Of a stretch of 35,937 nucleotides of DNA, positions 7,472 through 35,937 are shown in pieces. The translations under genes and the position numbers were made by a program. The first letter of the stretch is position 1. Every line of letters begins with the position of its first letter. The notes beneath the pieces are model-generated. The model was not told the origin of the DNA and ran no database searches. It saw only the letters and a program-made list of their open reading frames with translations. This DNA comes from a virus. Lineage: Duplodnaviria > Heunggongvirae > Uroviricota > Caudoviricetes. Where the stretch lies: positions 1 through 35,937 of the IMG/VR virus record IMGVR_UViG_2778261229_000003; one strand, given 5' to 3'.

Positions 7472-8440
7472 TTAGTAGGTTATTTTTGTTGCGAATACTT
7501 CGCCTTTTACGATGGCTGTTATGATATTTTTAGCAACATCTTCTGATGCGCCAACCTTGATAAGGTCAGCAAGTATTTTGTTATTTACTTCTTTCCGGTG
7601 AGCTTTATCCTTTGCTCTACGCTCTTCTTCGTCCTTGATTCTTTTTTCTTCTGCTATTCTGGCTTGCTCTTTTGCTTCAGCCTCGCGCCGGATTCGTTCT
7701 GCCTCCTCCTGTGCTTTACGGCGTTCTGCTTCAATTGCCGCATGCTTTTCTCTTTCAGTTCGTTCTGCTGCCTCTTTTGCTTCGCGCTGTGCTCGTTGCT
7801 CGGCTTCAATGCGTTCACGCTCTGCACGTTCCGCTGCGGCCTTAGCTTCTGCTTCTCGCCTTGCTGCTGCTTCAATTTCGGCTTTTGCCTTTGCTTCGGC
7901 TTCTGCTCTGGCTTTCTCTTCAGCTTCTCTTTTTAAGCGTTCTTCATGCTCTCGCTTTTCCTGCTCCGCTTTGAGTCTTTCCTCTTCTCTTTGGCGGTCA
8001 AATTCGCGATCCATCAAAATCGCTATTTCATGGTCAGACTCAATTTGCTTTGCGAGAGCTTCAGCTGCTGCCTTAGCTTCTTCTTCGGCTTTAATCCGCG
8101 CCTGTTCTTCCTCATAATCAGTAAGAGGCTGGCGCGCCTTGGCTTTCAGTTCATCAAGGCGATCGCGCACTGTCTTGCGGTTGGCATCAATTAGCTTTGG
8201 AATTTCCTTAAGTTCAGCAACAAGGTCTTTGCCAAGACCATCGAGATATGTTTTCGTCTGCGCAACTTTATACGCCAGAGAAGCGATCTCCTTTCTGCCC
8301 TTTGCCGTTGTGATATCAGGCACAAAGGACATAACTTCACGTTCAACCTTTTGAAGGATTTCTTCAATCTGGTCGGCAGACTGAAATACAGTCATTGCAT
8401 TTGCTTTTTCAATAACAACTAAATCTGTTACTTCACTCAT
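7472..8440 (-). CDS. ER/K-rich charged-repeat protein (predicted single alpha-helix / coiled coil), unknown function
   Basis: Track ORF 7472-8494; start refined to ATG 8440 (MSEVTDLV) with GGAGG RBS; central ~170 aa of A/E/K/R repeats (EAEAKAKAEIEAAARREAEAK...). Confidence 0.6.
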   Translation of the reverse strand: MSEVTDLVVIEKANAMTVFQSADQIEEILQKVEREVMSFVPDITTAKGRKEIASLAYKVAQTKTYLDGLGKDLVAELKEIPKLIDANRKTVRDRLDELKAKARQPLTDYEEEQARIKAEEEAKAAAEALAKQIESDHEIAILMDREFDRQREEERLKAEQEKREHEERLKREAEEKARAEAEAKAKAEIEAAARREAEAKAAAERAERERIEAEQRAQREAKEAAERTEREKHAAIEAERRKAQEEAERIRREAEAKEQARIAEEKRIKDEEERRAKDKAHRKEVNNKILADLIKVGASEDVAKNIITAIVKGEVFATKITY

Positions 8441-8452
8441 ATATCCTCCGTT

Positions 8453-8479
8453 AAAAAAATCGCCCTCACATTGGAGGGC
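8453..8479 (-). terminator. tL1-like rho-independent terminator (minus strand)
   Basis: Minus-strand hairpin GCCCTC-CAATGT-GAGGGC followed by GATTTTTTT, immediately upstream of the RBS of the ER/K-rich gene. Confidence 0.5.
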
Positions 8480-8541
8480 AAAGAAGATTTCCAATAATCA
8501 GAACAAGTCGGCTCCTGTTTAGTTACGAGCGACATTGCTCC

Positions 8542-8628: not shown

Positions 8629-9078
8629 TTACTTAACCAATGATGCTGCATATTCGATAAGGTAAAGCTTTGGGGCCAGCCAAATTTTTAACCAAGTCAT
8701 ATTGGTTACTACACCAATAATAAAAATCCCCCACAGAGTCAAAACTCCAACCAATGGCATGATAAGAAGATTAATATCACCTTTGCTATCCCAAACCATT
8801 GTCGGCCTGTATTTGGCATTTCCTTTCTCCCATGAATATCCTTCATCACCGATTTTACCTGTCTCAACTCTTTGGCACTGCTTCTTCATAAACCAGAAAA
8901 CTAGTGGGATTGTTAGAATGGCCATTAATGTTTTAATCAGACTGTCAACCATATTCCATAGCAGCAACTGATGAACAACATCAGGAATCTGTGCCTGGCT
9001 AAATGAAACAGCCGCGTCTATTCCATTGCTGGCTTTTTGCAGTAGTTCTACGAGAATCTTGTTTGCTTGTTCTTCCAT
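8629..9078 (-). CDS. Membrane protein at the SieB position (candidate superinfection exclusion)
   Basis: 149-aa ORF with 2-3 predicted hydrophobic helices (LMAILTIPLVFWFM; LLIMPLVGVLTLWGIFIIGVV); directly downstream of N and upstream of terminators. Confidence 0.4.
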   Translation of the reverse strand: MEEQANKILVELLQKASNGIDAAVSFSQAQIPDVVHQLLLWNMVDSLIKTLMAILTIPLVFWFMKKQCQRVETGKIGDEGYSWEKGNAKYRPTMVWDSKGDINLLIMPLVGVLTLWGIFIIGVVTNMTWLKIWLAPKLYLIEYAASLVK

Positions 9079-9086
9079 ATATCACC

Positions 9087-9413
9087 TCAAATAAGTGGTT
9101 TGCTGCCTAATTTCATTTTCTGGCGCCCAACACAAGTCACACCCATTTCGCTGCGTGGCTTGCTGTACCATGTGCGCTGATTCTTTCGCTGAATACGTTG
9201 CAGGTTGCTTTCAATCTGTTCGTGGTATTCAGCCAGCACTGTAAGGTCTATTGGATTCAGTGCGCTTTCTACTCGTGATTTCGGTTTGCGATTCAGCGAG
9301 AGAATAGGGCGGTTAACTGGTTTTGCGCTTACCCCAACCAACAGTGGATTTGCTGCTTTCCATTGAGCCTGTTTCTCTGCGCGACGTTCGCGGCGGCGTG
9401 TTTGTGCATCCAT
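9087..9413 (-). CDS. N: Antitermination protein N
   Basis: Start refined to MDAQTRRRERRAEKQAQWKAANPLLVG... which matches lambda N nearly residue-for-residue (from memory); arginine-rich boxB-binding motif. Confidence 0.9.
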   Translation of the reverse strand: MDAQTRRRERRAEKQAQWKAANPLLVGVSAKPVNRPILSLNRKPKSRVESALNPIDLTVLAEYHEQIESNLQRIQRKNQRTWYSKPRSEMGVTCVGRQKMKLGSKPLI

Positions 9414-9571
9414 CTGGATTCTCCTGTCAGTTAGCTTTGGTTGTGTGTGGGAGTCGTAGTCCTGAACGAAAACACCCCGCGATTGGCACATTGGCAGCTA
9501 ATCCGGATTCGCACTTCCGGCCAATGCTTCGTTTCGTATCACACACACCAAAGCCTTCTGCTTTGAATGCT

Positions 9572-9602
9572 GCCCTTCTTCAGGGCTTAATTTTTAAGAG
9601 CA
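9572..9602 (-). promoter_or_regulatory. nutL: nutL (boxA + boxB)
   Basis: Minus strand reads GCTCTTAAAAATTAAGCCCTGAAGAAGGGC, i.e. boxA-like GCTCTTA and boxB hairpin GCCCTGAAGAAGGGC identical to lambda nutL. Confidence 0.85.
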
Positions 9603-9635
9603 TCACCTTCATGGTGGTTAGTGCGTCCTGCTGAT

Positions 9636-9726
9636 GGCTTAAAATATACCTACAGGTAAAAGTGTTGTCTATACCTGCAGGTAAATAAAATTGGTGTCAG
9701 AGTTTACCTGTTTGAATTTTCAGGTA
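9636..9726 (-). promoter_or_regulatory. pL promoter with oL operators
   Basis: Leader ATCAGCAGGACGCACT as in lambda pL transcript; operators tacctacaggta (9647-9658), tacctgcaggta (9672-9683) and TACCTG-N10-CAGGTA (9705-9726); candidate -10 TATATT. Confidence 0.6.
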
Positions 9727-9744
9727 ATTAATTTTTTGGATTGA

Positions 9745-9770
9745 TATAAAAAAGCCCGCTTTGCGGGCTG
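9745..9770 (-). terminator. Rho-independent terminator of the cI operon (minus strand)
   Basis: Minus-strand hairpin AGCCCGC-AAA-GCGGGCT followed by TTTTTTATAT, 11 nt after the stop at 9781. Confidence 0.6.
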
Positions 9771-9780
9771 AAAGGAGATG

Positions 9781-10077
9781 TCAGAAGCTATTTGGATTGC
9801 TTGGCCATTGCGGCAATTTTGATTCTACCGGGGTGTGTTTGGGTTTGAGTCCGTTTAAGTAGTCAAGACGCTCAATGGCGCATTTATACATAGCAATCTG
9901 ATCTGATGACATGTCGTCATATGACATGCCTTTGAACTTCTTAATTATCGTTTCTGCCTCATGTATAAGATGCTTCTTCTTCATGAGTTCAGCTGTATGC
10001 TTAGAGCTTACAGGAGATAACTTTGCCCATATGAAGCAGATGATTACAACAGCGACCACTATACCTGGTATAAACAT
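9781..10077 (-). CDS. Small single-pass membrane protein co-transcribed with cI (rex-position moron)
   Basis: Track ORF 9781-10095 (TTG); first ATG at 10077 gives MFIPGIVVAVVIICFIWAKL (N-terminal TM helix) + ~75-aa soluble domain; GAGGA overlaps cI stop. Confidence 0.5.
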   Translation of the reverse strand: MFIPGIVVAVVIICFIWAKLSPVSSKHTAELMKKKHLIHEAETIIKKFKGMSYDDMSSDQIAMYKCAIERLDYLNGLKPKHTPVESKLPQWPSNPNSF

Positions 10078-10091
10078 TTGCTGCTTTATCC

Positions 10092-10778
10092 TCAAAATTT
10101 TGGCAGATCGTCCTGGTCTACGTACCTAGTGTGTTTCACAATAGCTGAAACAAAATGCATTTTATCAACTTCTTCAACAGGAAGAGTGATTGGACGGTGA
10201 TCGCTGTTTATACTACTAAACTGATAGTCTCCGTCTCTTGTTTTGTTCATGATCTTTATCATGTTATGACCATCTTTGGTCCTTACAAAGACTTCATCAC
10301 CTGGATGTACTGGCGTATTTGGTTCAATAACAACATATTCTCCTGACTGAATCCTTGGCCACATGCTGTCACCCTTAACCTTCAGACCGTAAGCATCTTT
10401 ATCGCCACTGTAGATGCTTAACCAACCGGATCTGAATTCAATCATATCCACTGAGCCATCAACTCCCAAAACGGCTTCACCAATTACCGGAACAAAACCC
10501 GCACGAACGTTACCCGCAAACTCAAGATGGTCTGCAGATCCAACTTTGCTATCTGCAAGCATGTCCATCCATCCGCGTGGGAGATTAAAAGATTTTTCAA
10601 TTAGTTCCATCATATCGTCAGCAATGCGTTTTTTTCCGCTTTTTCCTTCCGGATACAGCATTCTGGAAACGTATGATGGTTCCCTTTCTATTCGACGAGC
10701 CAACTCTGAGGCCTTTCCATTACAGAATCGGTCTCTTATCTCTATCAGCCTTAGTCGTCTTTGTTCGTATTTATCCAT
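10092..10778 (-). CDS. cI: CI-type repressor (HTH + S24 LexA-like peptidase domain)
   Basis: 228-aa ORF; C-terminal domain with AG cleavage-site candidate (VRAGFVP), catalytic Ser in GDSMWP and downstream Lys; divergent from cro across an operator region. Confidence 0.85.
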   Translation of the reverse strand: MDKYEQRRLRLIEIRDRFCNGKASELARRIEREPSYVSRMLYPEGKSGKKRIADDMMELIEKSFNLPRGWMDMLADSKVGSADHLEFAGNVRAGFVPVIGEAVLGVDGSVDMIEFRSGWLSIYSGDKDAYGLKVKGDSMWPRIQSGEYVVIEPNTPVHPGDEVFVRTKDGHNMIKIMNKTRDGDYQFSSINSDHRPITLPVEEVDKMHFVSAIVKHTRYVDQDDLPKF

Positions 10779-10798
10779 GATTTAATTCTATCTTTGAT

Positions 10799-10860
10799 TA
10801 CCTATCGGTAAATAACCTGTGGGTATTGATTTGTTTTTTACCTGCAGGTAAACTCACCTT
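10799..10860. promoter_or_regulatory. oR operators with divergent pRM/pR promoters
   Basis: Operators tacctatcggta (10799-10810), acctgtgggta (about 10814-10825) and tacctgcaggta (10839-10850); pR candidate -35 TTGATT (10826-10831), 17-bp spacer, -10 TAAACT. Confidence 0.6.
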
Positions 10861-10886
10861 ATTCAACAACGGGAAGGAGATAGCAA

Positions 10887-11117
10887 ATGGAAGAACTCCG
10901 CTTGTATCTGAACTCCCTTTCACTGGAAGAGCAGAGAGAATTTGCCACCAAGTGCGGAACTTCTATCGGCTATTTGAGGAAAGCACTTAGCCGTAATCAT
11001 GAATTGGGCGCAGCACTTTGTGTTCTGATTGAGAAGTTCAGCAATGGTGAAGTGACTCGCAAAGACCTTCATCCGGTTGATTGGGAAAGCATCTGGCCTG
11101 AATTAATGGCTGCTTAA
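10887..11117 (+). CDS. cro: Cro-like HTH repressor
   Basis: 76-aa ORF, first rightward gene after oR, GGAAGGAGA RBS; HTH segment EQREFATKCGTSIGYLRKAL. Confidence 0.7.
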   Translation: MEELRLYLNSLSLEEQREFATKCGTSIGYLRKALSRNHELGAALCVLIEKFSNGEVTRKDLHPVDWESIWPELMAA

Positions 11118-11125
11118 GTTATCAA

Positions 11126-11157
11126 CGCTCTTACACATTCCAGCCCTGAAAAAGGGC
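11126..11157 (+). promoter_or_regulatory. nutR: nutR (boxA + boxB)
   Basis: CGCTCTTAC (boxA) followed by GCCCTGAAAAAGGGC (boxB), identical to lambda nutR. Confidence 0.85.
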
Positions 11158-11170
11158 ATCAAATTAAACC

Positions 11171-11199
11171 ACACCTATGGTGTATGCATTTATTTGCAT
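11171..11199 (+). terminator. tR1-like terminator region
   Basis: Hairpin ACACC-TAT-GGTGT followed by ATGCATTTATTTGC between nutR and cII, as in lambda tR1 region. Confidence 0.4.
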
Positions 11200-11236
11200 A
11201 CATTCAATCAATTGTTATCTAAGGAAATACTTACAT

Positions 11237-11530
11237 ATGGTTCGTGCAAACAAACGCAACGAGGCTCTACGAATCGAGAGTGCGTTGCTTAACAAAATCG
11301 CAATGCTTGGAACTGAGAAGACAGCGGAAGCTGTGGGAGTTGATAAGTCGCAGATCAGCAGGTGGAAGAGGGATTGGATTCCAAAGTTCTCAATGCTGCT
11401 TGCTGTTCTTGAATGGGGCGTCGTTGACGACGATATGGCTCGATTGGCACGACAAGTTGCTTCGATTCTCACCAATAAAAAACGCCCGGCGGCAACCGAG
11501 CGTTCTGATCAAATACAAATGGAATTTTAA
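11237..11530 (+). CDS. cII: Transcriptional activator CII
   Basis: Start refined to MVRANKRNEALRIESALLNKIAMLGTEKTAEAVGVDKSQISRWKRDWIPKF..., matching lambda CII from memory. Confidence 0.9.
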   Translation: MVRANKRNEALRIESALLNKIAMLGTEKTAEAVGVDKSQISRWKRDWIPKFSMLLAVLEWGVVDDDMARLARQVASILTNKKRPAATERSDQIQMEF

Positions 11531-11827: not shown

Positions 11828-12775
11828 ATGAGCAATACAGCAAAAATCTACGATTTCAGCGCCGCACACGAGCGCAGGAGCAACAGGATGGAGAACCAGA
11901 AAACTGGTTACATTCCGTTGTACCGGAGCATTCTGAAACAGTCATGGGCGAAAGATGTTTATCTTCGCACCCTGTGGGAAAACCTTCTCCTGAATGCTGC
12001 CAGAAAGCCATACAAAGCGAATTTCAAAGGTCATGAATGGCATCTGCAACCCGGTCAACTGGTTGTGACAGCAGTTGATTTAGGTCTTCAGTTATGCGAC
12101 AGGCATGGCAAGCCGGCAAGCCGTGATCAGGTTGAGCGGATGCTTCAGGTTTTTGTGAAAGAGGGGATGATCTCCATTGATGGAGAGAAGCAAAAAGGTC
12201 GTGTGATCACCATCACAAATCACCATGAATATGCTCAAAAAATGGACGATTCACCCGCACATGAAGCCGCACAAACAACCGCACATGAAGCCGCACATGA
12301 TGAAGCCAGTAATGGTGCGGCTTTCAGCGTACATGCCACACATGAAAGCGCACATGAAGCCGCACAAACAACCGCACATCATGAACAAGAAGGTATTAAC
12401 AAGAATATAAATAATACCCCCCTACCCCCCAATGGGGGAGGCGATAGGCAGGTTAAACCTGAACGTCGCAAGGCAGAACGAATCGACTACGAATCCTTCC
12501 TGAACGCCTACAACACCGAAGTCGGTGACAGACTTCCACACGCTGTTGCGGTCAACGAGAAACGCAAACGTCGCTTGAAGAAAATCATCCCGCAACTGAA
12601 AACGCCAAACGTGGACGGTTTCAGAGCGTATGTCAGGGCGTTTGTGCATCAGGCCAAGCCGTTTTACTTCGGAGACAACGACACTGGTTGGACGGCCGAT
12701 TTTGATTACCTGCTGAGGGAAGATTCGTTAACGGGAGTACGGGAAGGGAAGTTTGCAGACAGGGGGATTGCATGA
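11828..12775 (+). CDS. Replication initiator (lambda O-like N-terminus) with repeat-containing linker
   Basis: 315-aa ORF; N-terminus [10 protein letters not shown] resembles lambda O (MTNTAKILNF); central His/Ala/Glu-rich repeats; ATGA-coupled to downstream helicase. Confidence 0.65.
12255..12430 (+). repeat. Iteron-like direct repeats plus AT-rich tract (candidate replication origin inside the O-like gene)
   Basis: About 31-bp repeat cgcacatgaagccgcacaaacaaccgcacat at 12256 and 12349, shorter ccgcacatga units between, followed by ggtattaacaagaatataaataata and a C-rich tract. Confidence 0.5.
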
Positions 12776-14148
12776 GACAGGATATCGAAGCGAGCGTTAT
12801 CGGTGGCCTGCTGATTGGTGGATTAACACCAACCGCCAGCGACGTTCTGGCAACGCTTGAGCCAGAAGCGTTTTCAATTCCGCTCTACCGGAAAGCCTTC
12901 GAGGTTATCCGCAAGCAGGCGCGAAACAGAAATTTAATCGACGCACTGATGGTTGCCGAGGCGTGCGGAGAGGAGCATTTCACGTCAATCCTGATGACCA
13001 GCAAAAACTGCCCGAGTGCCGCAAACCTGAAGGGATATGCCGGAATGGTCGCGGATAACTATCACCGCCGTCTGGTGCTGGAAATCATGGATGAAATGCG
13101 TGAACCAATTCAGAGCGGAACCATCGATACATCGAGTCAGGCGATGGACGAGCTTGTAAAGCGTCTTTCAGCTATCAGAAAGCCCCGTGACGAGGTTAAA
13201 CCTGTACGGTTAGGGGAAATCATCACCGACTACACTGACACGCTTGACAGGCGTCTGAGGAACGGAGAAGAGTCAGATACCCTGAAGACCGGAATCGAAG
13301 AACTTGACGCTATCACCGGAGGGATGAACGCTGAAGACCTGGTGATTATCGCCGCTCGTCCTGGTATGGGGAAAACCGAACTGGCGCTAAAGATTGCCGA
13401 AGGTGTTGCAAGCCGCGTTATTCCTGGTTCTGACGTCCGGCGCGGAGTATTGATTTTCTCGATGGAAATGAGCGCATTGCAGATTGCAGAGCGGAGCATT
13501 GCCAACGCCGGGAGGATGTCGGTTAGCGTGCTGCGAAATCCTGCATCGATGGATGACGAGGGCTGGGCACGTGTTGCTAACGGCATGAGTCAGCTTGCGG
13601 ATTTGGATGTATGGGTAGTCGATGCCTCGCGGTTATCGGTCGAAGAAATACGCTCAATCGCAGAACGGCACAAACAGGAAAATCCAAACCTGTCACTCAT
13701 CATGGCGGATTATCTTGGCCTGATTGAGAAGCCGAAAGCAGACCGCAACGACCTTGCAATTGCTCACATCTCCGGAAGCCTGAAGGCGATAGCGAAAGAC
13801 CTGAAAACGCCTGTTATCTCCCTGAGTCAGCTTTCGCGCGATGTTGAGAAGCGACCAAACAAACGCCCGACAAACGCAGATTTGCGTGATTCAGGAAGCA
13901 TTGAGCAGGACGCAGACTCAATCATCATGCTCTATCGGGAAGCGGTATATGACGAGAACAGTAGCGCCGCGCCATTTGCTGAAATCATTGTGACGAAAAA
14001 CCGTTTTGGCTCACTTGGTACGGTTTACCAGCGGTTCTGCAACGGACACTTTGTTGCATGTGATCAGGATGAAGCCAGACAGATTTGCACAGCATCAAAT
14101 GCACCTGCTGCGCGTGGCAGACGATATGCACAAGGGGCTGACGTATGA
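12772..14148 (+). CDS. Replicative DNA helicase, DnaB family
   Basis: 458-aa ORF with Walker [14 protein letters not shown], Walker B/arginine-finger region ([23 protein letters not shown]) and DnaB-like N-terminal domain. Confidence 0.85.
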
Positions 14149-22539: not shown

Positions 22540-24738
22540 ATGGCAGAAAAAAAGATGACTGACTGGCATCGCAAGGTGCTGTGCAACTTTGATAATGCCT
22601 GGTCAGCAACGCAGGATATGCGTGAGCAGATTATTGAGGCTCAACGTTTCGTCCGGGTATCCGGCGCACAGTGGGAAGGCAGCACAAACGCTGGTTACTC
22701 ATTTGATGAAGGCAGGTTTGAGCATTACCCGCGCTTTGAACTGAATAAGATTGCCCGTGAATGTGATCGCATCATTGGCGAGTATCGACAGAATCGCATC
22801 AGCGTTAAATTCAGGCCGAAGGACGATAAGGCATCGGAAGCGTTAGCCGAAAAGATGAACGGCAAATTCCGCGCTGACTATCAGGAAACATCCGGTGGCG
22901 AAGCGTGTGATAACGCATTTGATGATGCTGTAACGGGCGGATTCGGTTGTTTCCGCATGTGTGCCGATTACGAAGATGAAATGGATCCGAGTAACGAGCA
23001 GCGACGCATCAGCCTTCTTCCTGTTTACGACCCAGCGACATGCGTCTTCTTCGATCAGGACAGCAAGCAATATGACCGCTCTGATGCTATGTGGGCTATG
23101 GAAATGTTCTCCATGACGCCTAAAGCGTTCGAGGCTGAATACCCTGATTCCATCGCGGCAAGCCTTTCTCGTGATGACACTGGCACTCAATATGACTGGT
23201 CAACGCCAGATGCCATCTATGTTGGTCGCTACTACGAAGTTCGCATAGAGAAGGTGAAGCTCACGGCATGGCGCAACCCTGTTAGCGGAGAAACGGCAAT
23301 CTATGATGAAGAGCAAATCAAAGATATTGTCGACGAGCTGACCGATGGCGCATTCGAACTGATTGGTGAGCGGACAGTGAAGAAACGCAGAGTTTATTGC
23401 GGTCTTCTGTCTGGCGCTGAATGGCTGGAAGAACCGAAGCGTATTCCGGGCGAACATATTCCTCTCATCCCGGTATATGGGCGTCGCTCATTTGTTGATA
23501 ATCAGGAGCGAATCGAAGGCCACGCAGCAAAAGCGATGGATGCACAGCGTCTTGAGAACCTGATGGTTTCCATGATTGCAGATAACGCTACTCAGGCTGG
23601 CGGTGATGGAATTCCTGTAGTTGATGTTGACATGATTCCTGGTCCTCTCGCCACTCATTGGGCGGAGCGCAACAAAAAGCGCCCGGCGTTCCTGCCGATG
23701 GTAAGTCTGAAAAACAAAAACGGAGATATTACTGCGCAGGCTCAGGTCAGCAGTTATACACCTCCGACACAAATGCCTCCTGCTCTTGCCGGGCTATTGC
23801 AGTACACCGGAACGGCTATTCAGCAAATTACAGGCGCGTCGCAGCTTGAGAACATGCCGAGCAACGTCGCCACCGATACCGTTGATAGCATCTTTAACCG
23901 GATGGACACGCAGTCCTATATCTACATGGACAACATGGCTAAATCCATGCGTCGCGCTGGTGTTGTGTGGCTTTCTATGGCGCGTGAGGTCTATGGCAGT
24001 GATACGCCGATGCGTATCGTTAATGAGGACGGCAGCGATGACGTGGCGCTGATGACTGGTGAAGTGGTTGACCGTCAGACAGGGCAGGTTATCGCGCTTA
24101 ATGACCTTTCGCATGGCAACTATGAAGTGACTGTCGATGTCGGTCAGTCGTTCGCTACTCGCCGTGATGCAACGGTTAAGTCGTTACTTTCCATGCTGGC
24201 ACTTATCCCACCAGGAACGCCGAAGCACGACCTTGTATCGTCGATGATTCTCGACAATATGGACGGCGAAGGGATGGACGACCTTAAAGAATACAACCGC
24301 AATCAGTTGCTTCTGTCTGGAGTTATCAAGCCGAGAACACCAGAAGAACAGCAGATGGTTGAGCAGGCGAAACAACAACAGGACAGTCAGCCAGATCCGG
24401 CTATGGTTGCAGCGCAAGGTCAGCTTCTTGCAGGTCAGGCTGAATTGCAGAAAGCGCAGAACGAACAGGCAGCCATTCAGGTTAAAGCATTCCAGGCACA
24501 GACTGATGCTCAGGTTGCAGCGGCAAACGTTGTGAAAATCCTCGCATCTGCCGATAGCCAGCAGAAATCTGATATCCGCGAGGCTCTGAAACTGCTCGGA
24601 CAGTTCCAGCAACAGCAAGGAGACAATGCCCGTGCTGATGCAGAGCTTGTCCTGAAAAGTCAGGCGCAGGGCCATGCGCAGCGCATGGACATCAGCAGCA
24701 TCCTGCAAAAATCAACTCAGCAACAACCACAGCAGTAA
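22540..24738 (+). CDS. Portal protein (P22 gp1-like)
   Basis: 732-aa ORF; segments RRVYCGLLSGAEWLEEPKRIPGEHIPLIPVYG and C-terminal PEEQQMVEQAKQQQDSQPDPAMVAAQGQLLAGQAELQKAQN resemble P22 portal. Confidence 0.85.
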   Translation: MAEKKMTDWHRKVLCNFDNAWSATQDMREQIIEAQRFVRVSGAQWEGSTNAGYSFDEGRFEHYPRFELNKIARECDRIIGEYRQNRISVKFRPKDDKASEALAEKMNGKFRADYQETSGGEACDNAFDDAVTGGFGCFRMCADYEDEMDPSNEQRRISLLPVYDPATCVFFDQDSKQYDRSDAMWAMEMFSMTPKAFEAEYPDSIAASLSRDDTGTQYDWSTPDAIYVGRYYEVRIEKVKLTAWRNPVSGETAIYDEEQIKDIVDELTDGAFELIGERTVKKRRVYCGLLSGAEWLEEPKRIPGEHIPLIPVYGRRSFVDNQERIEGHAAKAMDAQRLENLMVSMIADNATQAGGDGIPVVDVDMIPGPLATHWAERNKKRPAFLPMVSLKNKNGDITAQAQVSSYTPPTQMPPALAGLLQYTGTAIQQITGASQLENMPSNVATDTVDSIFNRMDTQSYIYMDNMAKSMRRAGVVWLSMAREVYGSDTPMRIVNEDGSDDVALMTGEVVDRQTGQVIALNDLSHGNYEVTVDVGQSFATRRDATVKSLLSMLALIPPGTPKHDLVSSMILDNMDGEGMDDLKEYNRNQLLLSGVIKPRTPEEQQMVEQAKQQQDSQPDPAMVAAQGQLLAGQAELQKAQNEQAAIQVKAFQAQTDAQVAAANVVKILASADSQQKSDIREALKLLGQFQQQQGDNARADAELVLKSQAQGHAQRMDISSILQKSTQQQPQQ

Positions 24739-24828
24739 TTAACCCATAACGTGCAATGGCTGTCTTTATGAGGCCTGGCACCTTATTGCCTTCCGATGGG
24801 CTGAACATCGAGTAAACAGGGGTAACAA

Positions 24829-25722
24829 ATGGACCAGATGGCAGAAAACACACCAGAAGTTGAAATCGAAACCGACGCGTCAGAGCAGATTCCTGATGAT
24901 GTCGAACTGGCTGAAGAAGTCGAAACAGAAGATGGCAGTGAGTCCTCTGGCAATGATGCAGAGGAAGCTACTGAAACTGATGACGACGAATCAGAACAGG
25001 AATTCTACTTTGGTGACGAAAAGCTGGATTCGCCAACCAGCGAAGATAGCGCAGAGCATGGACTGGTAAAACACCTGCGCAAGACGATTAAAGAGAAAGA
25101 CCGCGATCTGAAAGAGCTGATGCGTCAGTCTCAGAAACCCGTCGAGCAGCAGCCGGTAATCACTCAACCACCGCGAATGCCAAAACTGGATGATGAGGAC
25201 ATCGGTTTCGATGAAGAAATCTATCAGCAACGTATGGCTAAGTGGGCAGAGGAAAACGGCAAATACCAGGAGCAAGTACGAGAGCAGAAACGAGAGGAAG
25301 AGGCGCGTACCGCAACGCTTCAGCAGAAAGCAGCCAATTACATGCAGAGAGTAAAAGCACTGAAAGTGGCTGGCTACCAGGATGCAGAGCAGGCTGTGCG
25401 CGAAGATGTTCCTGTTCATATTCAGGACATGATCCTTCTTGAGTCAGAGAAGCCGGAAATCGTTGTTCTGGCACTCGGTCGCAACGCTGAACTGCGCAAG
25501 CAACTGGCAGAAGCTACCAACCCCGTAGCAATTGGTCGTCTGCTGGAACGTATCGAATCTAAGGCCAGAATCATGCCAAAAGCAAAAACCACGGCAGCCA
25601 CAACCCCGACAGTTAAGGGGAGCAACGGCGCAGTAATCAATAACCTCGACAAACTGAAAGCCAAGGCGCTGGAAACTGGTGACTGGACGCCGTATTTCGC
25701 CGCTAAAAAGGCAAAAAAATAA
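24829..25722 (+). CDS. Scaffolding protein
   Basis: 297-aa highly acidic/helical ORF between portal and coat, as in P22 gp8. Confidence 0.7.
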   Translation: MDQMAENTPEVEIETDASEQIPDDVELAEEVETEDGSESSGNDAEEATETDDDESEQEFYFGDEKLDSPTSEDSAEHGLVKHLRKTIKEKDRDLKELMRQSQKPVEQQPVITQPPRMPKLDDEDIGFDEEIYQQRMAKWAEENGKYQEQVREQKREEEARTATLQQKAANYMQRVKALKVAGYQDAEQAVREDVPVHIQDMILLESEKPEIVVLALGRNAELRKQLAEATNPVAIGRLLERIESKARIMPKAKTTAATTPTVKGSNGAVINNLDKLKAKALETGDWTPYFAAKKAKK

Positions 25723-25740
25723 CCTATCGGAGCATTAAGC

Positions 25741-26994
25741 ATGGCTAACCAATTAGCAAAAGACCTTGAAATCATGTTCGAAAACTACGTTGAAGGCTTT
25801 GAGGCCGCCTGCGTAGTTTCCCGTAACGCTAAAAAATTCCGTCCCGGTGATACAGCAATGCAGCGAGCAGGTGATGTTCTGTATCGTCCGCAGCATTACC
25901 ACATGAACATTGAGGAAGGCCTCGACCTCAGCAGCAAAACGCCAACAGCACTGGTTCAGCGCCTTGTTCCTTCTGTGTTCAAGGAGCCGAAAAACATTCT
26001 GTACACTCTGGATGCGCGTGAAATGCGTGACCCGGAACATAAAACTGAAGCTGGTCGCGCCGCAGGTATGCGCCTTGCTGCACAGATTGACTCTGACCTG
26101 ATTTCCATGGTCACGCAGCGTGCTACTAACGTGATCACAATGGCTGACTCAACCACTGGTTCACAGGGCCGTGATTTGTGGAACTGTGCGGCAGGTATTG
26201 ATGCCACCATGACGGCGATTGGTGTACCACAGGGTATCAACCGCCGCTCTTTCTGGAACCCCTTCAACTATAAAGACCTTGCTGGCGAGCTTGGTCACCG
26301 TGCTTATGCTCAGGGCGCAACCCTGACAGCATACGAAAAAGCGCAGATCCCTCCGGTTGCGTCCTTCGATAGCTACAAGACCGATATTTCCGGTCGTGTT
26401 CCGAAGGGTACAGCAACTTCCATTACGCTGGCAGCAGCACCTGCGCACAAGGTTGAAGCGAAAGATGCTAACGATATGCCAGTGGATAACCGACAGGGGA
26501 CCATTACGGTATCTGCTGAAGGTTTGCAGGTTGGCGATGCGTTTACCATCGCAGGGGTGAATTCCGTACACCAGATCACCAAAGATACCACCGGGCAGCC
26601 GCAGGTATTCCGCGTTCTGGCAGTTAGCGGAACGACAGTAACTATATCCCCGAAAATTCTGCCGCCTGACAACGCGGATGTCGCCAGCCGTCCATATGCA
26701 AACGTTGATGCTAATGCGGCAAGTAGCGCAGCAATCACTATTCTCAACAAAAATGCCGCACCGGCTAACCTGTTCTGGGCTGATGGTTCTGTTGAACTGA
26801 TGTACGGCAAACTGGCGTTCCCGACTGGTCAGGGTCCACAGGTAATGACAGCAACCACCGAGCAGGGCGCTACGCTGATCATGTCTTATGCCTTCGACCA
26901 CATCAAAGGCGTAACCACTGCTCGTTTCACCACTCTGTACGGTTGCTCTGTACTTGTTCCTGAATATACGGGCATCGTTATTGCCGGGCAGTAA
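25741..26994 (+). CDS. Major coat protein (P22 gp5-like)
   Basis: 417-aa ORF; motifs GDAFTIAGVN, YANVDANAASSAAITILNKNAAPANLFWADG resemble P22 coat; strong terminator follows. Confidence 0.8.
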   Translation: MANQLAKDLEIMFENYVEGFEAACVVSRNAKKFRPGDTAMQRAGDVLYRPQHYHMNIEEGLDLSSKTPTALVQRLVPSVFKEPKNILYTLDAREMRDPEHKTEAGRAAGMRLAAQIDSDLISMVTQRATNVITMADSTTGSQGRDLWNCAAGIDATMTAIGVPQGINRRSFWNPFNYKDLAGELGHRAYAQGATLTAYEKAQIPPVASFDSYKTDISGRVPKGTATSITLAAAPAHKVEAKDANDMPVDNRQGTITVSAEGLQVGDAFTIAGVNSVHQITKDTTGQPQVFRVLAVSGTTVTISPKILPPDNADVASRPYANVDANAASSAAITILNKNAAPANLFWADGSVELMYGKLAFPTGQGPQVMTATTEQGATLIMSYAFDHIKGVTTARFTTLYGCSVLVPEYTGIVIAGQ

Positions 26995-27001
26995 TTTTGG
27001 T

Positions 27002-27023
27002 GGGGCTTCGGCCCCATTTTTAT
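27002..27023 (+). terminator. Rho-independent terminator after coat gene
   Basis: Hairpin GGGGC-TTCG-GCCCC followed by ATTTTTATT. Confidence 0.7.
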
Positions 27024-27035
27024 TGGGAGAAGACA

Positions 27036-27224
27036 ATGGCACGAACAATGCTCTATAAGCCGGGCAACATGATCACCTGTGGTCAGTTTGCTGTCGATTA
27101 CATCATTGTTGATGACGAAGAAGTTAAATCTCACCTGAAAAAAGGCTGGGTAAAAACTCCTGAAGAAACCGCAACGAAGCAAAAAGTGGCTAAGGCGGAA
27201 GAAGATGGCGAAAACGAAGGGTGA
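27036..27224 (+). CDS. Small hypothetical protein (62 aa)
   Basis: ORF MARTMLYKPGNMITCGQFAVDYIIVDDEEV... with GGGAGAAG RBS; between coat and gp4-like genes. Confidence 0.4.
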   Translation: MARTMLYKPGNMITCGQFAVDYIIVDDEEVKSHLKKGWVKTPEETATKQKVAKAEEDGENEG

Positions 27225-27666
27225 TCTCGTTCTTAAGGCTTTACGAAAAGCCGGGCTGTATTCCAATGCCACGTTGACAGATGCCGACCCTCAGGCAATT
27301 GAAGATGCCATTAATGACCTCGAAGACATGATGGCAGCATGGCAGGCGAAAGGTATCGAGCTTGGATATCAGTTTGCTGATACAGAAAACGGCATCATGC
27401 CGTTACCTGACGATGATTCAGGTATCCCTGCATGGGCAAATGATGGCGTCGCTTTGAAGCTCGCTGTGCAGGTGTGCATGGATAACGTCATTCAGCCGTC
27501 GGATGCTCTCCTGACCGCTGCTGACAGTGCATATCAGACAATCTGTATCGCTTTAACAAAAATACCACCACTTGAGCGACGAAATGACATGCCTCGCGGT
27601 AGTGGTAACAAAAGCGCGTTTACGTGGAATCGGTTTTACATCGAGAAAGATGATCCGAGTACGTGA
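27205..27666 (+). CDS. Head-to-tail adaptor / tail accessory factor (P22 gp4-like)
   Basis: 153-aa ORF MAKTKGDLVLKALRKAGLYSNATLTDADPQAIEDAINDLEDMMAAW resembling P22 gp4. Confidence 0.8.
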   Translation: MAKTKGDLVLKALRKAGLYSNATLTDADPQAIEDAINDLEDMMAAWQAKGIELGYQFADTENGIMPLPDDDSGIPAWANDGVALKLAVQVCMDNVIQPSDALLTAADSAYQTICIALTKIPPLERRNDMPRGSGNKSAFTWNRFYIEKDDPST

Positions 27667-27675
27667 GGTGAATAA

Positions 27676-29094
27676 ATGCCGATTCAGCAACTTCCGCTTA
27701 TGAAAGGTGTCGGCAAAGATTTCCGAAACGCCGACTATATCGACTATCTGCCAGTGAATATGTTGGCTACACCCAAAGAAATCCTTAACAGCAGCGGATA
27801 TCTTCGTTCATTCCCGGGCATTGCCAAACGTTCTGATGTGAACGGAGTATCGCGAGGCGTCGAGTACAACATGGCGCAGAATGCTGTTTATCGCGTGTGT
27901 GGTGGAAAGCTGTACAAAGGAGAAAGTGAAGTCGGTGATGTTGCCGGAAGTGGTCGCGTATCAATGGCGCATGGTCGGACATCACAGGCGGTAGGCGTTA
28001 ATGGTCAACTGGTCGAGTATCGCTATGATGGCACGGTTAAAACCGTCTCAAACTGGCCTACAGACAGCGGATTCACACAGTATGAGTTAGGTTCAGTTCG
28101 CGACATTACGCGCTTACGTGGCCGTTATGCGTGGTCAAAAGACGGCACCGATTCATGGTTTATCACTGACCTTGAAGACGAATCGCATCCTGACCGATAC
28201 AGCGCACAATATCGCGCAGAATCACAGCCTGACGGCATCATCGGAATCGGAACATGGCGAGACTTCATCGTCTGCTTTGGTACATCGACTATTGAATATT
28301 TCTCCCTGACTGGTGCAACCACAGTTGGTGCTGCTTTGTATGTCGCACAGCCATCGCTGATGGTGCAGAAAGGCATTGCCGGGACTTACTGCAAAACACC
28401 ATTCGCTGATTCTTATGCGTTCATCAGCAATCCGGCAACGGGTGCGCCGTCTGTGTACATCATCGGTTCCGGGCAGGTGTCACCAATCGCCAGCGCGAGC
28501 ATTGAGAAAATTCTTCGCACCTACACTGCTGATGAACTGGCTGATGGCGTAATGGAATCGCTGCGGTTTGATGCTCATGAATTGCTGATTATCCATCTTC
28601 CGCGTCACGTCCTCGTGTACGACGCATCTTCAAGCGCCAATGGTCCGCAATGGTGTGTGTTGAAAACAGGCCTGTATGACGATGTGTACCGCGCTATCGA
28701 CTTCATTTACGAAGGCAATCAGATAACGTGCGGCGATAAGCTGGAATCCGTGACCGGGAAATTGCAGTTCGATATCAGCAGCCAGTACGACAAGCAGCAG
28801 GAACACCTGCTGTTTACTCCACTATTCAAAGCAGATAACGCCAGAGTTTTCGACCTTGAGGTTGAATCGTCAACTGGCGTTGCGCAGTACGCCGACCGCC
28901 TGTTCCTCTCTGCAACCACTGACGGCATAAATTACGGACGTGAGCAGATGATTGAGCAGAATGAACCGTTCGTTTACGACAAGCGTGTTTTGTGGAAGCG
29001 AGTAGGGCGCATCAGGAAAAATGTCGGCTTCAAACTTCGCGTTATCACGAAGTCACCTGTAACTCTGTCTGGCGCTCAGATAAGGATTGAGTAA
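27676..29094 (+). CDS. Tail hub protein (P22 gp10-like)
   Basis: 472-aa [52 protein letters not shown]... matching P22 gp10 from memory. Confidence 0.9.
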
Positions 29095-29942
29095 TGGCGG
29101 ATTCATCACTGAATAATCCTGTAGCGGTTCAGGCTACGCGCCTTGATGCTTCAATTTTGCCACGCAATATATTCAGCCAGTCTTACCTGCTGTATGTCAT
29201 TAATCAGGGGGCTGATGTAGGCGCAATTGCCGGGAAGGCAAATCAGGCTGGTCAGGGCGCTTATGACGCGCAGGTAAGGAACGATGAGCAGGATGTGATT
29301 CTCGCTGACCATGAGCAGCGAATTTCTGCTGCGGAAGCAACGCTTGTTAATCATGAGGAGCGAATCAGCCAGGCAGAATCAACTCTTCAGGACCATGAAA
29401 CACGAATCGCTCAGAATGAAAGCGATATTGCGTCGCTTGATACCAGAGTTCAGTCGCTGGAATCGCAGGTTTCAGACCATGAAACGCGCATCGATGCTCT
29501 GGAGTATGCAACTACTCGCAAGAAGTCAGAGGTTGTTTACTCTGGCGTATCTGTAACCATCCCGACAGCGCCGACCAACCTTGTTAGCCTGCTGAAAACG
29601 CTCACGCCGTCATCTGGCACGTTGACACCATTCTTCGACACCGTTAACAACAAGATGGTTGTGTTCAACGAGAACAAAACCTTGTTCTTCAAGCTGTCGA
29701 TCGTCGGGACGTGGCCCAGCGGAACCGCCAACAGGTCAATGCAGCTAACATTCTCCGGTTCTGTTCCTGACACACTGGTAAGCAGTCGCAACTCGGCGAC
29801 AACAACCGATAACATCTTGTTAGCTACGTTCTTCAGCGTGGATAAAGACGGCTTTCTTGCCACAAATGGCAGCACGTTAACCATTCAGTCGAATGGTGCG
29901 GCGTTTACTGCCACAACCATCAAAATCATTGCGGAGCAGTGA
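29094..29942 (+). CDS. Tail needle (gp26 N-terminal domain + C-terminal knob, Sf6-type)
   Basis: 282-aa ORF; N-terminus [50 protein letters not shown] matches P22 gp26; heptad HE.RI repeats; divergent ~130-aa C-terminal domain. Confidence 0.85.
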
Positions 29943-30421
29943 TGGAAATAAAGCTCATCGATAATCCGGTGAAGCTTGCAGAATTCCTCAACAACCCGGC
30001 AAACACGGGAAATATCGTAGACAGTGGAGACAAATACTACATCAAGCCTGATGCGGTATACCTCGGCATCTACGAAGGACTGATGCTGGTCGGAGTGCAT
30101 GAAGTGCGTAACTTCTGGCATAGCGTTGTTGAATGCCATGCGGTGTACGACCCCGGATTCCGTGGCGAATATGCACTGCAAGGGCATCGATTATTCTGCA
30201 AATGGCTTCTCGAAAACTCACCATTCCTTAACAGCATCACTATGGTTCCTGACACCACGAAATACGGACGGTCAATTATCCGTTTGCTTGGCGCTACCCG
30301 TGTTGGTCACCTTGATGATGCTTATACCAGCAATGGAAAGCCTGTAGGCATCACGATTTATCAGTTACCGCGCTCAAAATACGAGGAGCTAAAGAATGTT
30401 AATTTTCCAGATTGCCAATAA
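29939..30421 (+). CDS. gp14-like virion assembly/ejection accessory protein
   Basis: 160-aa ORF in the position of P22 gene 14, ATGA-coupled to needle gene; similarity not verified. Confidence 0.45.
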
Positions 30422-31070
30422 GCACCTCAGCAAAACTGTTTACTGCAAAGGTGGCGGTGATGGCGGTTCAAAAGCCCAGGCACGCGCCACTGAAAAGGGC
30501 ATCGAACTGCAGCGTGAAATGTGGCAAACGAACATGCAGAACCTTGCACCGTTTACGCCACTCGCTCAGCAGTACGTATCAGAGTTGCAAAATCTTTCCT
30601 CTCTTCAGGGGCAAGGTAAGGCGCTTAACCAGTATTACAACTCTCAGCAGTATAAAGACCTTGCAGGGCAGGCGCGCTATCAGAGTCTGGCAGCAGCAGA
30701 GGCAACTGGTGGATTAGGCTCTACAGCAACAGGAAACCAGTTAGCAGCAATCGCACCTACACTCGGTCAAAACTGGCTGTCAGGTCAGATGAACAACTAC
30801 AACAATCTGGCAAATATCGGCCTTGGTGCTCTTACAGGTCAGGCAAATGCCGGACAGAACTACGCTAACAACGTCAGCCAATTGTATCAACAGCAGGCGG
30901 CAGCATCTGCGGCTAATGCTAACCGACCATCAGGACTGCAATCAGCCTTGGGAGGTGCCATGAGCGGTGCTGCATCAGGGGCGATGATTGGCTCTGTGGT
31001 GCCTGGAATAGGTACAGCTGTTGGCGCTATTGGTGGCGGTATTATCGGTGGGCTTGGATCATTGTTTTAA
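30396..31070 (+). CDS. Ejection protein (P22 gp7-like)
   Basis: 224-aa Gly/Gln/Ala-rich ORF in gene 7 position; start uncertain (overlaps upstream ORF by 26 nt). Confidence 0.6.
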   Translation: MLIFQIANKHLSKTVYCKGGGDGGSKAQARATEKGIELQREMWQTNMQNLAPFTPLAQQYVSELQNLSSLQGQGKALNQYYNSQQYKDLAGQARYQSLAAAEATGGLGSTATGNQLAAIAPTLGQNWLSGQMNNYNNLANIGLGALTGQANAGQNYANNVSQLYQQQAAASAANANRPSGLQSALGGAMSGAASGAMIGSVVPGIGTAVGAIGGGIIGGLGSLF

Positions 31071-31079
31071 GGTGGGAAT

Positions 31080-32381
31080 ATGGCTACTTGGCAACAAGGA
31101 ATCAACTCAGGCGGCTTTCTTGCTGGTATCGGTGGGCAAAACTCAAATGCGCCAAAGGCAAGTGATGTAAGTGAGGCGTTGGCCTATATTCGCCAGAACA
31201 ACGAAATGGAGCGCTCAGGTCGCAATAACATCGGCCTTCAGGCGTTGCAGGGTCTTGGTAGTGTCGCTCAAGCATATCAAGCCGCAAAGCAACAGGAAGC
31301 GGATGCTGCATTCCAAAAAGAATATGCGGCAGCCATCCAGTCCGGCGATCGACAGCAGGTTCGAAATCTGATGACCAAATATCCTGGTCAATTAGAGAAG
31401 ATTCAGTCTGGTATGAAGTGGGCAGACGAAGACCAGCGCAATTCCATCGGTACCTTAGCGGCTGGCGCACGCCTTGCGTCATCGTCTCCAGAAGCAATGC
31501 AATCATGGCTGCAAAACAACGCCAAGGAACTGACTCGCGTCGGTGTTGACCCTAATAACGTTGCTCAGATGTATCAGCAGAATCCTTCAGGATTTGGTGA
31601 GTTTGTTGATCACCTTGGAATGGCTGCTCTTGGTCCGATTGATTACTTCAATGTTCAGGACAAGATGGCTGGTCGTGAGATTGACCGAGGCAGGCTGGCA
31701 GAGACAATCCGCAGCAATCAGGCAGGAGAAGCACTAACAGCTCGAGGTCAGGACATCCAGATACGTGGACAGAACATCAGCGCACAGAATGCTGCTCTTT
31801 CCCGAGAAATACAAAGAGCAGAATTACAAGAAAAGGCTCTGGACAGACAGATAGCCAGAGAAAGCAATCAGTTAAAGCTTGAAGAGCTAAAACAGAAACA
31901 GGCAGATGTTCGGCAAAAGGCTGACATAGCCCGCGCTGACAGGCAGGCCGCCGCTCAGGGTGCAGTTGATACGTTCAGCACCGCGCTTGATTCTCTCAAC
32001 GAGATAGAGCAAAGCCCCGGCCTTTCAAAAGCAGTAGGAATTCGCTCAGCGTTTCCGACAGTTCCTGGCTCTGATGCGGCTAACTTTGAAGCAAGGCTCG
32101 ACACCTTTAAAGCTCAAACATTCCTTCCTATGGTGCAGTCCCTGAAGGGTATGGGCGCTCTTTCAGATGCAGAGGGTAAAAAATTATCCGATGCGGTTGG
32201 TGCCCTAAGCCCCAAAATGAGTGAAAAGGCTTTTCGTGACTCTATCGGAAAGATTAGAAATCAGCTTGAAAGCAAGTTGAGCACTGTTAAAAAACAGTTT
32301 GATTATCAGGAGCCAGTACAGAATACGCCAGCGCAACAACCTACTACTGGCAGTAATTTTTCTTCACTATGGGGTGATTAA
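31080..32381 (+). CDS. Ejection protein (P22 gp20-like)
   Basis: 433-aa ORF in gene 20 position, coiled-coil central region. Confidence 0.6.
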   Translation: MATWQQGINSGGFLAGIGGQNSNAPKASDVSEALAYIRQNNEMERSGRNNIGLQALQGLGSVAQAYQAAKQQEADAAFQKEYAAAIQSGDRQQVRNLMTKYPGQLEKIQSGMKWADEDQRNSIGTLAAGARLASSSPEAMQSWLQNNAKELTRVGVDPNNVAQMYQQNPSGFGEFVDHLGMAALGPIDYFNVQDKMAGREIDRGRLAETIRSNQAGEALTARGQDIQIRGQNISAQNAALSREIQRAELQEKALDRQIARESNQLKLEELKQKQADVRQKADIARADRQAAAQGAVDTFSTALDSLNEIEQSPGLSKAVGIRSAFPTVPGSDAANFEARLDTFKAQTFLPMVQSLKGMGALSDAEGKKLSDAVGALSPKMSEKAFRDSIGKIRNQLESKLSTVKKQFDYQEPVQNTPAQQPTTGSNFSSLWGD

Positions 32382-35024: not shown

Positions 35025-35291
35025 CTATGTTCCCTTTTTATTATTGCTATACATGGTCTTAAGCGTTTCAAAAACCATTTTCTTAACCATATCAGATTGT
35101 TGTTCTGCTATACGCTCTGCATCGTCAATGTAAACTGATGCAGAGCTTTGTTTAGCCAATGATTCTTCAATCGCTGCAATTATCTCTGAGTTCAGCGACC
35201 TGTTATTCATCTTCGCGCGCTGTTTAATTTTCGCGTGAAGTTCATGCGGAAGTCTCAAGTGAAACTGCGCCTCGTCGTATTTACTGTACAT
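35025..35291 (-). CDS. mnt: Mnt-like ribbon-helix-helix repressor
   Basis: Start refined to MYSKYDEAQFHLRLPHELHAKIKQRAKMNNRSLNSEIIAAIEESL...; RHH N-terminus and C-terminal DDAERIAEQQSDMVKKMVFETLK resemble P22 Mnt. Confidence 0.7.
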   Translation of the reverse strand: MYSKYDEAQFHLRLPHELHAKIKQRAKMNNRSLNSEIIAAIEESLAKQSSASVYIDDAERIAEQQSDMVKKMVFETLKTMYSNNKKGT

Positions 35292-35364
35292 CCTTGATGC
35301 CTCACCAGTTGGGTGGAATGGCATCGTAACCTACTGGATAAATACTCAATAGTACCATTTCGAT

Positions 35365-35387
35365 ATGCAATCACATCATGGTTGCAT
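35365..35387. promoter_or_regulatory. Inverted repeat, candidate operator in mnt-tailspike intergenic region
   Basis: ATGCAA-N11-TTGCAT between divergent mnt and tailspike starts. Confidence 0.3.
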
Positions 35388-35412
35388 CATATCATTCGTC
35401 TGGAGCAATGAA

Positions 35413-35937
35413 ATGTCAGATATCACCGCAAATGTTGTGGTAAGCATGCCTTCGCAACTCTTCACTATGGCGCGTTCTTTTAAAGCCGTAGCCAATGGCA
35501 AAATTTATATCGGTAAAATTGACACTGACCCGGTAAATCCTGAAAACCAGATTCAGGTTTATGTAGAGAACGAAGACGGTTCTCACATTCCTGTTTCGCA
35601 ACCAATAATCATTAACACTGCTGGATATCCGGTATATAACGGACAGATTGCCAAATTCGTAACCGTGCAAGGCCATTCTATGGCTGTATATGATGCGTAT
35701 GGTGCACAGCAGTTCTATTTTCCTAATGTTCTAAAATACGAGCCTGACCAGTTACGTCACTACGTAGATGAGCTACTGGCAGCAATACAATCAGAAATTG
35801 ATGAGATATCAGATTTTAACTGCCGATTATCTTCAAAAGAAGGTGCTAGCCTAGTTGCGACTGAAACAGGAAGAACGGTAGAGGCTTCTATTCGTGCTGC
35901 GTCTGGATCATCACAGGCCCTTTTCCCAAATTTCGTC
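35413..35937 (+). CDS. Tailspike protein, N-terminal head-binding domain (partial, continues past window end)
   Basis: [58 protein letters not shown]... matches P22 gp9 N-terminal domain; GGAG RBS; no stop before 35937. Confidence 0.9.

Follow-up and report, generated by a model that had tools for sequence, protein, structure and literature searches.

We have identified positions 9637 to 11125 of a viral DNA of 35,937 nucleotides (Caudoviricetes; IMG/VR record IMGVR_UViG_2778261229_000003, referred to at its full length as the window) as, very probably, a lambdoid immunity module of the type carried by coliphage mEp043, recombined into a P22-like/CUS-3-like genome between lambda-type N/nutL and nutR/cII. 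The genetic switch within this module is real and standard lambdoid in its behavior. Its immunity type has already been sequenced in mEp043, and hence is not new. As far as we found in the literature, its operator set has no earlier description; a literature search on mEp043 returned no description of the operators of that phage.

Boundaries and identity of the immunity module

BLAST was used to compare the window with lambda. On the left, positions 9112-9636 (N, nutL and the PL leader) match lambda 35062-35583 with 93.9% identity, and on the right, positions 11126-11526 (nutR and cII) match lambda 38249-38649 with 97.5% identity. The last homologous base on the left is 9636, which corresponds to lambda PL +1. 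Homology returns at 11126, just past the cro stop codon, and BLAST detected no DNA homology to lambda within 9637-11125. The breakpoints thus delimit a heterologous insert that begins at the PL start point and ends just beyond the cro stop codon. An earlier reading of this DNA, made without database searches (the sequence-only reading), had described N, nutL, nutR, the PL leader and cII as lambda-like around a foreign cI/cro pair, and had proposed module exchange at the immunity region. The identity of the two flanks, and the sharp breakpoints around a mEp043-type insert, bear out both statements. The cI/cro pair does differ from that of lambda, since BLASTP against lambda gave a weak match to the S24 domain only for CI and no match for Cro.

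The insert of ~1.5 kb shares 96.9% nucleotide identity with the immunity region of mEp043 (JQ182734 / NC_019706 / PV340537), and this identity spans cI, cro, an accessory gene (moron) and both operator regions. The two CI proteins are 98% identical overall and agree at 72 of 72 residues of the N-terminal, DNA-binding domain, and all TTACC/GGTAA operator half-sites are identical, as expected of a member of the mEp043 group. mEp043 has been reported as an immunity group of its own, shared neither with lambda or HK022 nor with any other phage of the panel studied (PMC3442831), so the proposal that the specificity is not that of lambda holds. Neither lambda CI/Cro homology in the specificity-determining parts nor 17-bp operators of the TATCACCGC type were found in the insert, and the lambda locus in our collection (L004) in turn contains no copy of the relaxed dyad TACCNNNNGGTA described below; the operators therefore do not match lambda immunity. 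The full immunity region occurs in 52 of 5426 complete E. coli genomes (~1%). While the window has a lambda-like cII, the mEp043 genome differs in its replication module and has a cII of the P22-C1 type, so that the same immunity cassette is found in differing genomic backgrounds. The remainder of the window, including its virion module, is P22-like/CUS-3-like.

Operators and promoters

All of the palindromes listed in the sequence-only reading were recovered at their positions by reading the sequence directly: TACCTGCAGGTA at 9672-9683 and again at 10839-10850, TACCTACAGGTA at 9647-9658, TACCTATCGGTA at 10799-10810, and (A)ACCTGTGGGTA, also written AACCTGTGGGTA, at 10814-10825. In the window, TACCTGCAGGTA with two or fewer mismatches has four matches versus 0.70 expected, and TACCNNNNGGTA has five versus 0.19 expected; neither count was reached in any of 100 shuffles. 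Four of the five TACCNNNNGGTA matches fall within two control regions of ~100 bp. The fifth, TACCACAGGGTA at 26225-26236, is isolated inside a late (virion) gene and is most likely a chance match.

Viewed as 14-bp sites, the palindromes lie on promoter hexamers, in keeping with the operator role proposed for them, and form the repeated dyad operators over PL and PR/PRM that are expected of a lambdoid switch. PL (9643-9671, minus strand) consists of TAGACA (9671-9666), a 17-bp spacer and TATATT (9648-9643), and was called by a promoter scan with 10 of 12 consensus bases. Its predicted start, at ~9636, is precisely the end of the lambda homology. The same element is annotated as a putative PL in mEp043 (JQ182734) and is conserved in all alleles, with TTGACG and TTGACA in the related Paraburkholderia and Stenotrophomonas loci (L102 and L103, below). 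OL1 (ATACCTACAGGTAA, 9646-9659) is centered at -16.5 of PL and overlaps its -10 element and spacer, and OL2 (ATACCTGCAGGTAA, 9671-9684) is centered at -41.5 and abuts the -35 element.

On the right, PRM (10785-10812, minus strand; promoter scan) consists of TTTACC (10812-10807), a 16-bp spacer and TAGAAT (10790-10785), with a -10 position conserved across alleles. Counting on the sequence places its predicted start at the A of the cI ATG (10778). The -10 element is followed by 6 nucleotides and then the ATG, as in lambda, and the cI mRNA is therefore probably leaderless. PR (10826-10854, plus strand) was read by eye as TTGATT (10826-10831), a 17-bp spacer and TAAACT (10849-10854), and both hexamers keep their place in each of 15 distinct OR alleles, with TTGACT, for example, in the Paraburkholderia locus. 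OR3 (TTACCTATCGGTAA, 10798-10811) sits on the PRM -35 element and keeps TTACC-N4-GGTAA with a free center in the same 15 alleles. OR2 (TAACCTGTGGGTAT, 10813-10826) is centered at -41.5 of PRM and abuts the PR -35 element; one of its halves is non-consensus (GGTTA in the sense of cI) and is kept in all enterobacterial alleles. OR1 (TTACCTGCAGGTAA, 10838-10851) forms the inner part of a perfect palindrome of 16 bp (10837-10852) and overlaps the spacer and -10 element of PR. The center-to-center spacing is 25 bp for both OR1-OR2 and OL1-OL2, and 15 bp for OR2-OR3.

Conservation of the operators among related loci

Viral and genome collections yielded a total of 103 loci encoding CI relatives. Wherever the repressor has the N-terminal domain MDKYEQRR…SYVSRMLYPEGK (also given as MDKYEQRR…ELARRIEREPSYVSRMLYPEGK), the locus carries the motif at fixed positions, namely -72 (OR1), -47 (OR2) and -32 (OR3) from the cI start, and every such locus long enough to include OL has the downstream OL1/OL2 pair 25 bp apart. 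Loci sharing only the S24 C-terminal domain gave zero or one scattered match, none at the fixed positions. The motif is retained in Paraburkholderia xenovorans LB400 (L102), where the repressor is 136 aa long with a different C-terminal domain, in Stenotrophomonas (L103) with a different S24-like domain, in phage CharmingMan (L108) with an N-terminal domain 81% identical, and in an E. coli Rac-like cryptic prophage (L110, GCA_021058705 contig) with a 139-aa repressor beside YdaT and DicB genes. The same specificity module occurs with S24 and non-S24 C-termini and is thus re-paired with different oligomerization or induction domains. All of the N-terminal-domain loci checked, L102 and L103 included, also encode a Cro homologue (…TSIGYLRKALS…) in divergent orientation. 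Short non-S24 repressors of ~135-140 aa with the same DNA-binding domain, Cro and operators (L102, L110 and proteins P0004-P0043) were also observed, and one cluster of them, in a Rac-like prophage beside YdaT, DUF1391 and DicB genes, holds 543 member sequences.

When the distinct sites of ~40 related loci are pooled, the operator consensus is t-T-A-C-C-Y-R-Y-R-G-G-T-A-a, a 14-bp dyad in which TACC/GGTA is nearly invariant. Polymorphism was examined in the control regions of 27 distinct alleles that are 97-100% identical. Variable columns number 0 of 40 in the outer operator positions, 10 of 20 in the operator centers (positions 5-8) and 17 of 192 elsewhere in the intergenic DNA (Fisher's exact test: center versus outer, p = 2.5e-6; center versus other, p = 1.7e-5). 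Fixed outer bases around a variable center are the pattern expected of contacted half-sites flanking a non-contacted center. The sequence-only reading had centered its operator palindrome on CTGCAG. Its sites are real, but CTGCAG is the variable part, and the determinant of specificity is the conserved outer TTACC/GGTAA.

The same data bear on whether the palindromes are regulatory at all. Both perfect copies contain PstI (CTGCAG) and SbfI (CCTGCAGG) sites, and the palindromes could in principle be restriction-site palindromes or the product of chance. We consider this extremely improbable, because conservation resides in the outer TACC/GGTA and variation is greatest in the central CTGCAG; on that ground the restriction-site interpretation was rejected. 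Chance would also have to account for five matches where 0.19 are expected, for their clustering on promoters, and for fixed positions across ~40 loci from three bacterial orders.

The five promoter bases between the PL -35 element and OL1 (9661-9665) are hypervariable, with two to four alleles per column (three to four at 9663-9665) in the 27 otherwise 97-100% identical sequences. The equivalent bases of the PR spacer (10833-10835) also vary, but less so. These may simply be the only unconstrained promoter bases, or they may tune promoter strength.

A separate dyad, TGTACC-N5-GGTACA, occurs in the annotated operator region of phage SfV (L109, 1440-1470), whose CI N-terminal domain is 39% identical; across the wider family of repressors, TACC-type half-sites may thus be recognized with spacers of more than one length.

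The repressor, Cro and the moron

The divergent repressor and small Cro of a lambdoid switch are both present. cI (10092-10778, minus strand) encodes 228 aa, with an N-terminal helix-turn-helix (residues 1 to ~70) followed by an S24 autopeptidase (LexA-like) domain found with Pfam. Sequence correlates of self-cleavage are a candidate Ala88-Gly89 cleavage site, the GDSM Ser138, and Lys175. The recognition helix is PSYVSRM (residues 34-40), and the N-terminal domain was modeled with confidence as a repressor-type helix-turn-helix fold. Neither Pfam nor NCBIfam has a model for this domain, PADLOC gave no match for CI, and a search of PDB sequences with CI returned noise only (E > 0.08).

Cro (10887-11117, plus strand; 76 aa) is a YdaS-like helix-turn-helix protein (PHROG 35; Pfam YdaS_toxin E 8e-6, below the cutoff) and matches the PDB Cro structures 8co2/8c7k with E 2e-10. 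Literature searched with the codes 8C7K/8CO2 comprised chemistry papers only.

Downstream of cI, in the position of lambda rex, the moron (9781-10095, minus strand) encodes a predicted membrane protein of 104 aa that belongs to PHROG 10450 (unknown function; E 1.3e-55), is also present in mEp043, and had no Pfam, NCBIfam or PADLOC match. It is co-transcribed with cI, and the transcript ends at a strong intrinsic terminator found by a terminator scan (9753-9769, minus strand; AGCCCGC-AAA-GCGGGCT followed by a T run). In related immunity modules this slot, occupied by rexAB in lambda, holds other cargo, and the distance between cI and OL ranges from ~470 to 1450 bp.

A split site beside OL2

The sequence-only reading had counted three operators on each side. 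The right side does have three (OR1-3), whereas the left has two canonical sites plus an element of the form TTACC-N14-GGTAA at 9704-9727 (core TACCTG-N10-CAGGTA, 9705-9726). The half-sites of this split site are canonical and in the correct inverted orientation around an A/T-tract center, and the distance between them exceeds the normal one by 10 bp, or one helical turn. In all enterobacterial S24-type alleles that reach OL, the half-sites do not vary, the spacing between them is always 14 bp and OL2 always lies 19 nt away, even where cI is just 78-85% identical and the neighboring DNA and cargo genes differ. The half-sites have no variable column in the 27 close alleles, and the spacer retains an A4TT or T5 tract. 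The split site is absent in the Paraburkholderia, Stenotrophomonas and CharmingMan loci (L102, L103 and L108), which have OL1/OL2 only, and so is not essential to the switch.

The conservation of the split site argues for function, and the most attractive reading would be a long-spacer operator reached through flexible linkers. Such an 'OL3' might be bound by a dimer whose DNA-binding domains are flexibly linked, or by two dimers, across a bent A/T tract, and its role could be to regulate PL or PRM weakly or over a distance (OL-OR loop). We propose it tentatively, at somewhat less than even probability. In its favor are the invariance of half-sites and distances despite diverged surroundings, the freedom of the half-sites from polymorphism and the retained A/T tract. 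In the case of AraC, half-sites may lie one helical turn further apart, and the C repressor of phage 16-3 reportedly accepts spacers of 4 and 6 bp. However, the distant lineages keep OL1/OL2 without the split site, and a 10-bp increase is far above any documented spacer change for a cI-type repressor. It is unlikely that the element is instead a relic, a former third operator disrupted by the insertion of 10 bp, or that it serves another use, such as a weak extra leftward promoter (ATTACC-16-TAAACT). All lineages have just two canonical OL sites, and hence a third is dispensable, as a relic would be; decay, however, would not preserve both half-sites and the exact spacings while the neighboring DNA diverged. 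As for a promoter, GGTAAACT at the proximal half repeats the -10 context of PR (TAAACT), but the match of ~7 of 12 bases is poor and was not called by the promoter scan.

Considered either as a promoter or as an RNA hairpin, the split site is unconvincing, given the 7/12 match and its position downstream of a strong terminator.

A more speculative proposal, which we put forward with low confidence, is that flexible linkers and the intrinsic bend of the A/T tract let the same CI bind the split site as a genuine operator, which could act as a distal anchor for OL-OR looping or in fine control of PL. Separately, and equally conjectural, the variable operator centers and promoter spacers may reflect selection that retunes set-points (lysogen stability, induction threshold) with immunity specificity unchanged.

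Proposed working of the switch

From the sequences, positions, homologies, co-inheritance and conservation pattern observed, we infer a switch that would work as follows. A CI dimer is predicted to bind the 14-bp dyads tTACC-YRYR-GGTAa, with the PSYVSRM recognition helix reading the invariant TTACC half-sites and the four central base pairs, probably not contacted, tuning affinity. Occupancy of OR1 and OR2 would shut off cro and the rightward genes. Given its position at -41.5 of PRM, the activation geometry of lambda, OR2 could also activate the leaderless PRM-cI transcript, and the conservation of its non-consensus half suggests that the site is weak and that OR1, at a distance of 25 bp, assists its occupancy. 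OR3, on the PRM -35 element, may provide negative autoregulation or Cro-mediated shut-off of cI. OL1 and OL2 would repress PL and N, and Cro, always co-inherited with the N-terminal domain, is expected on the same sites. Repression would be established by lambda-type cII at PRE, for which a TTGC-N6-TTGC box can be read on the minus strand at 11243-11256. The box lies within the lambda-derived flank, so that lambda-type cII can establish repression, as in classical imm hybrids; a module set between N/nutL and nutR/cII, together with PRE, is again the lambdoid arrangement. Induction would presumably proceed by RecA-stimulated self-cleavage of CI.

Several points weigh against this interpretation. 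PR matches the consensus at 8 of 12 bases, under the threshold of the promoter scan, and was not called by it. The OR2-OR3 distance of 15 bp, versus 23 in lambda, makes simultaneous occupancy and a lambda-like logic at OR3 uncertain. The split site is a poor fit to a simple model of a dimer on a dyad. The repressor of phage 933W is reportedly non-cooperative (PMC3317979), and a spacing of 25 bp is therefore no proof of cooperativity. A literature search found no binding, footprint or reporter data for this repressor, and a search for the 12-mer TACCTGCAGGTA returned one unrelated cloning paper.

Comparison with known systems

mEp043 has the same half-sites and spacings, the split site included, and differs in the operator centers at five of six sites (all but OL1, with the split site counted) and in the promoter spacers. 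In lambda, too, cI and cro are divergent, PRM is leaderless with its -10 element placed in the same way relative to the ATG, OR2 lies at ~-42 of PRM, OR1-OR2 and OL1-OL2 are ~24-25 bp apart, cI and OL are separated by an accessory gene and a terminator, and the module boundaries beside nutL and nutR are identical. Lambda differs in that no similarity is detectable in the DNA-binding domain or Cro, in the 14-bp TTACC-N4-GGTAA operators here versus its 17-bp sites, in the shorter OR2-OR3 distance here, and in a third OL site where the split element is found here.

In the operators of phage 434, 14-bp dyads with conserved outer ACAA/TTGT, the central base pairs are variable. Koudelka, Harrison and Ptashne are said to have found in 1987 that these non-contacted central bases tune affinity. 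The distribution of variable columns described above, none in the outer positions and half of those in the center, is the pattern that such indirect readout would give.

The nearest experimentally characterized relative is the 933W repressor, which has the same S24 domain and an overall identity of ~49%; the mEp043 cI is itself annotated 'similar to 933W CI'. The 933W operators were compared by their published description (PMC3317979), since positions 24000-32000 of 933W proved to hold lysis and packaging genes and no cI region. The 933W OL, as here, has two canonical operators only (PMC3317979). Unlike here, the operator of 933W is 15 bp long and symmetric around a central base pair, and other bases are conserved in it, namely those at positions 2-5, of which 4 and 5 are A and C (PMC3317979). 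933W-like loci have a SKAVSK-type recognition helix in place of PSYVSRM, and no TACC motif was found in the control regions of the five loci with a 933W-like N-terminal domain (L069, L070, L089, L090 and L101). The window thus has neither the recognition helix nor the 15-bp operator of 933W immunity. The Rep repressor of Salmonella phage SPC32H (PDB 5d50) is described as acting as a tetramer and as inactivated by an antirepressor (PMC9638917), whereas CI here carries an S24 self-cleavage domain instead.

The module defines, at the level of sequence, a further lambdoid immunity specificity, comprising operator, recognition helix, Cro partner and promoter geometry. Prophages of E. coli commonly have this specificity, which extends to Burkholderiales and Xanthomonadales. 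The definition may be used for annotating the immunity type of prophages, for predicting homoimmunity and as a source of orthogonal repressor/operator pairs. The module is also a clean natural example of exchange precisely at PL +1 and at the boundary past cro, and of a DNA-binding domain re-paired with other C-termini. The general understanding of such switches is unchanged, and the stretched split site is the sole element possibly worth an experiment.

Flanking genes and nut sites

The lambda-like N antiterminator gene (9087-9413, minus strand; Pfam N36 E 1.8e-26) lies partly in the 93.9% lambda block at 9112-9636. nutL (9572-9600, minus strand) was read directly as boxB GCCCTGAAGAAGGGC (9572-9586) and a boxA-like TGCTCTTAA (9590-9600), and the block covers lambda nutL (35518-35534). 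The boxB is the same as that of lambda, and the boxA differs from lambda CGCTCTTAA by one substitution, at the first base. The right flank (11126-11530, plus strand) holds nutR, with boxA/boxB readable from 11126 onward, and cII (Pfam Phage_CII E 5e-48).

Downstream of N on the minus strand, 8629-9078 encodes a protein of 149 aa with hydrophobic stretches (PHROG 3054, unknown function; no PADLOC match), and 7472-8494 encodes a Glu/Ala/Lys/Arg-rich 'TolA-like' protein of 340 aa, which the annotation of mEp043 likens to Sf6 gp33. The replication genes differ from those of lambda: on the plus strand, 11828-12775 encodes a protein of 315 aa in the position of O with a His/Ala-rich repeat, and 12772-14148 encodes a DnaB-type helicase of 458 aa in place of the lambda P loader.

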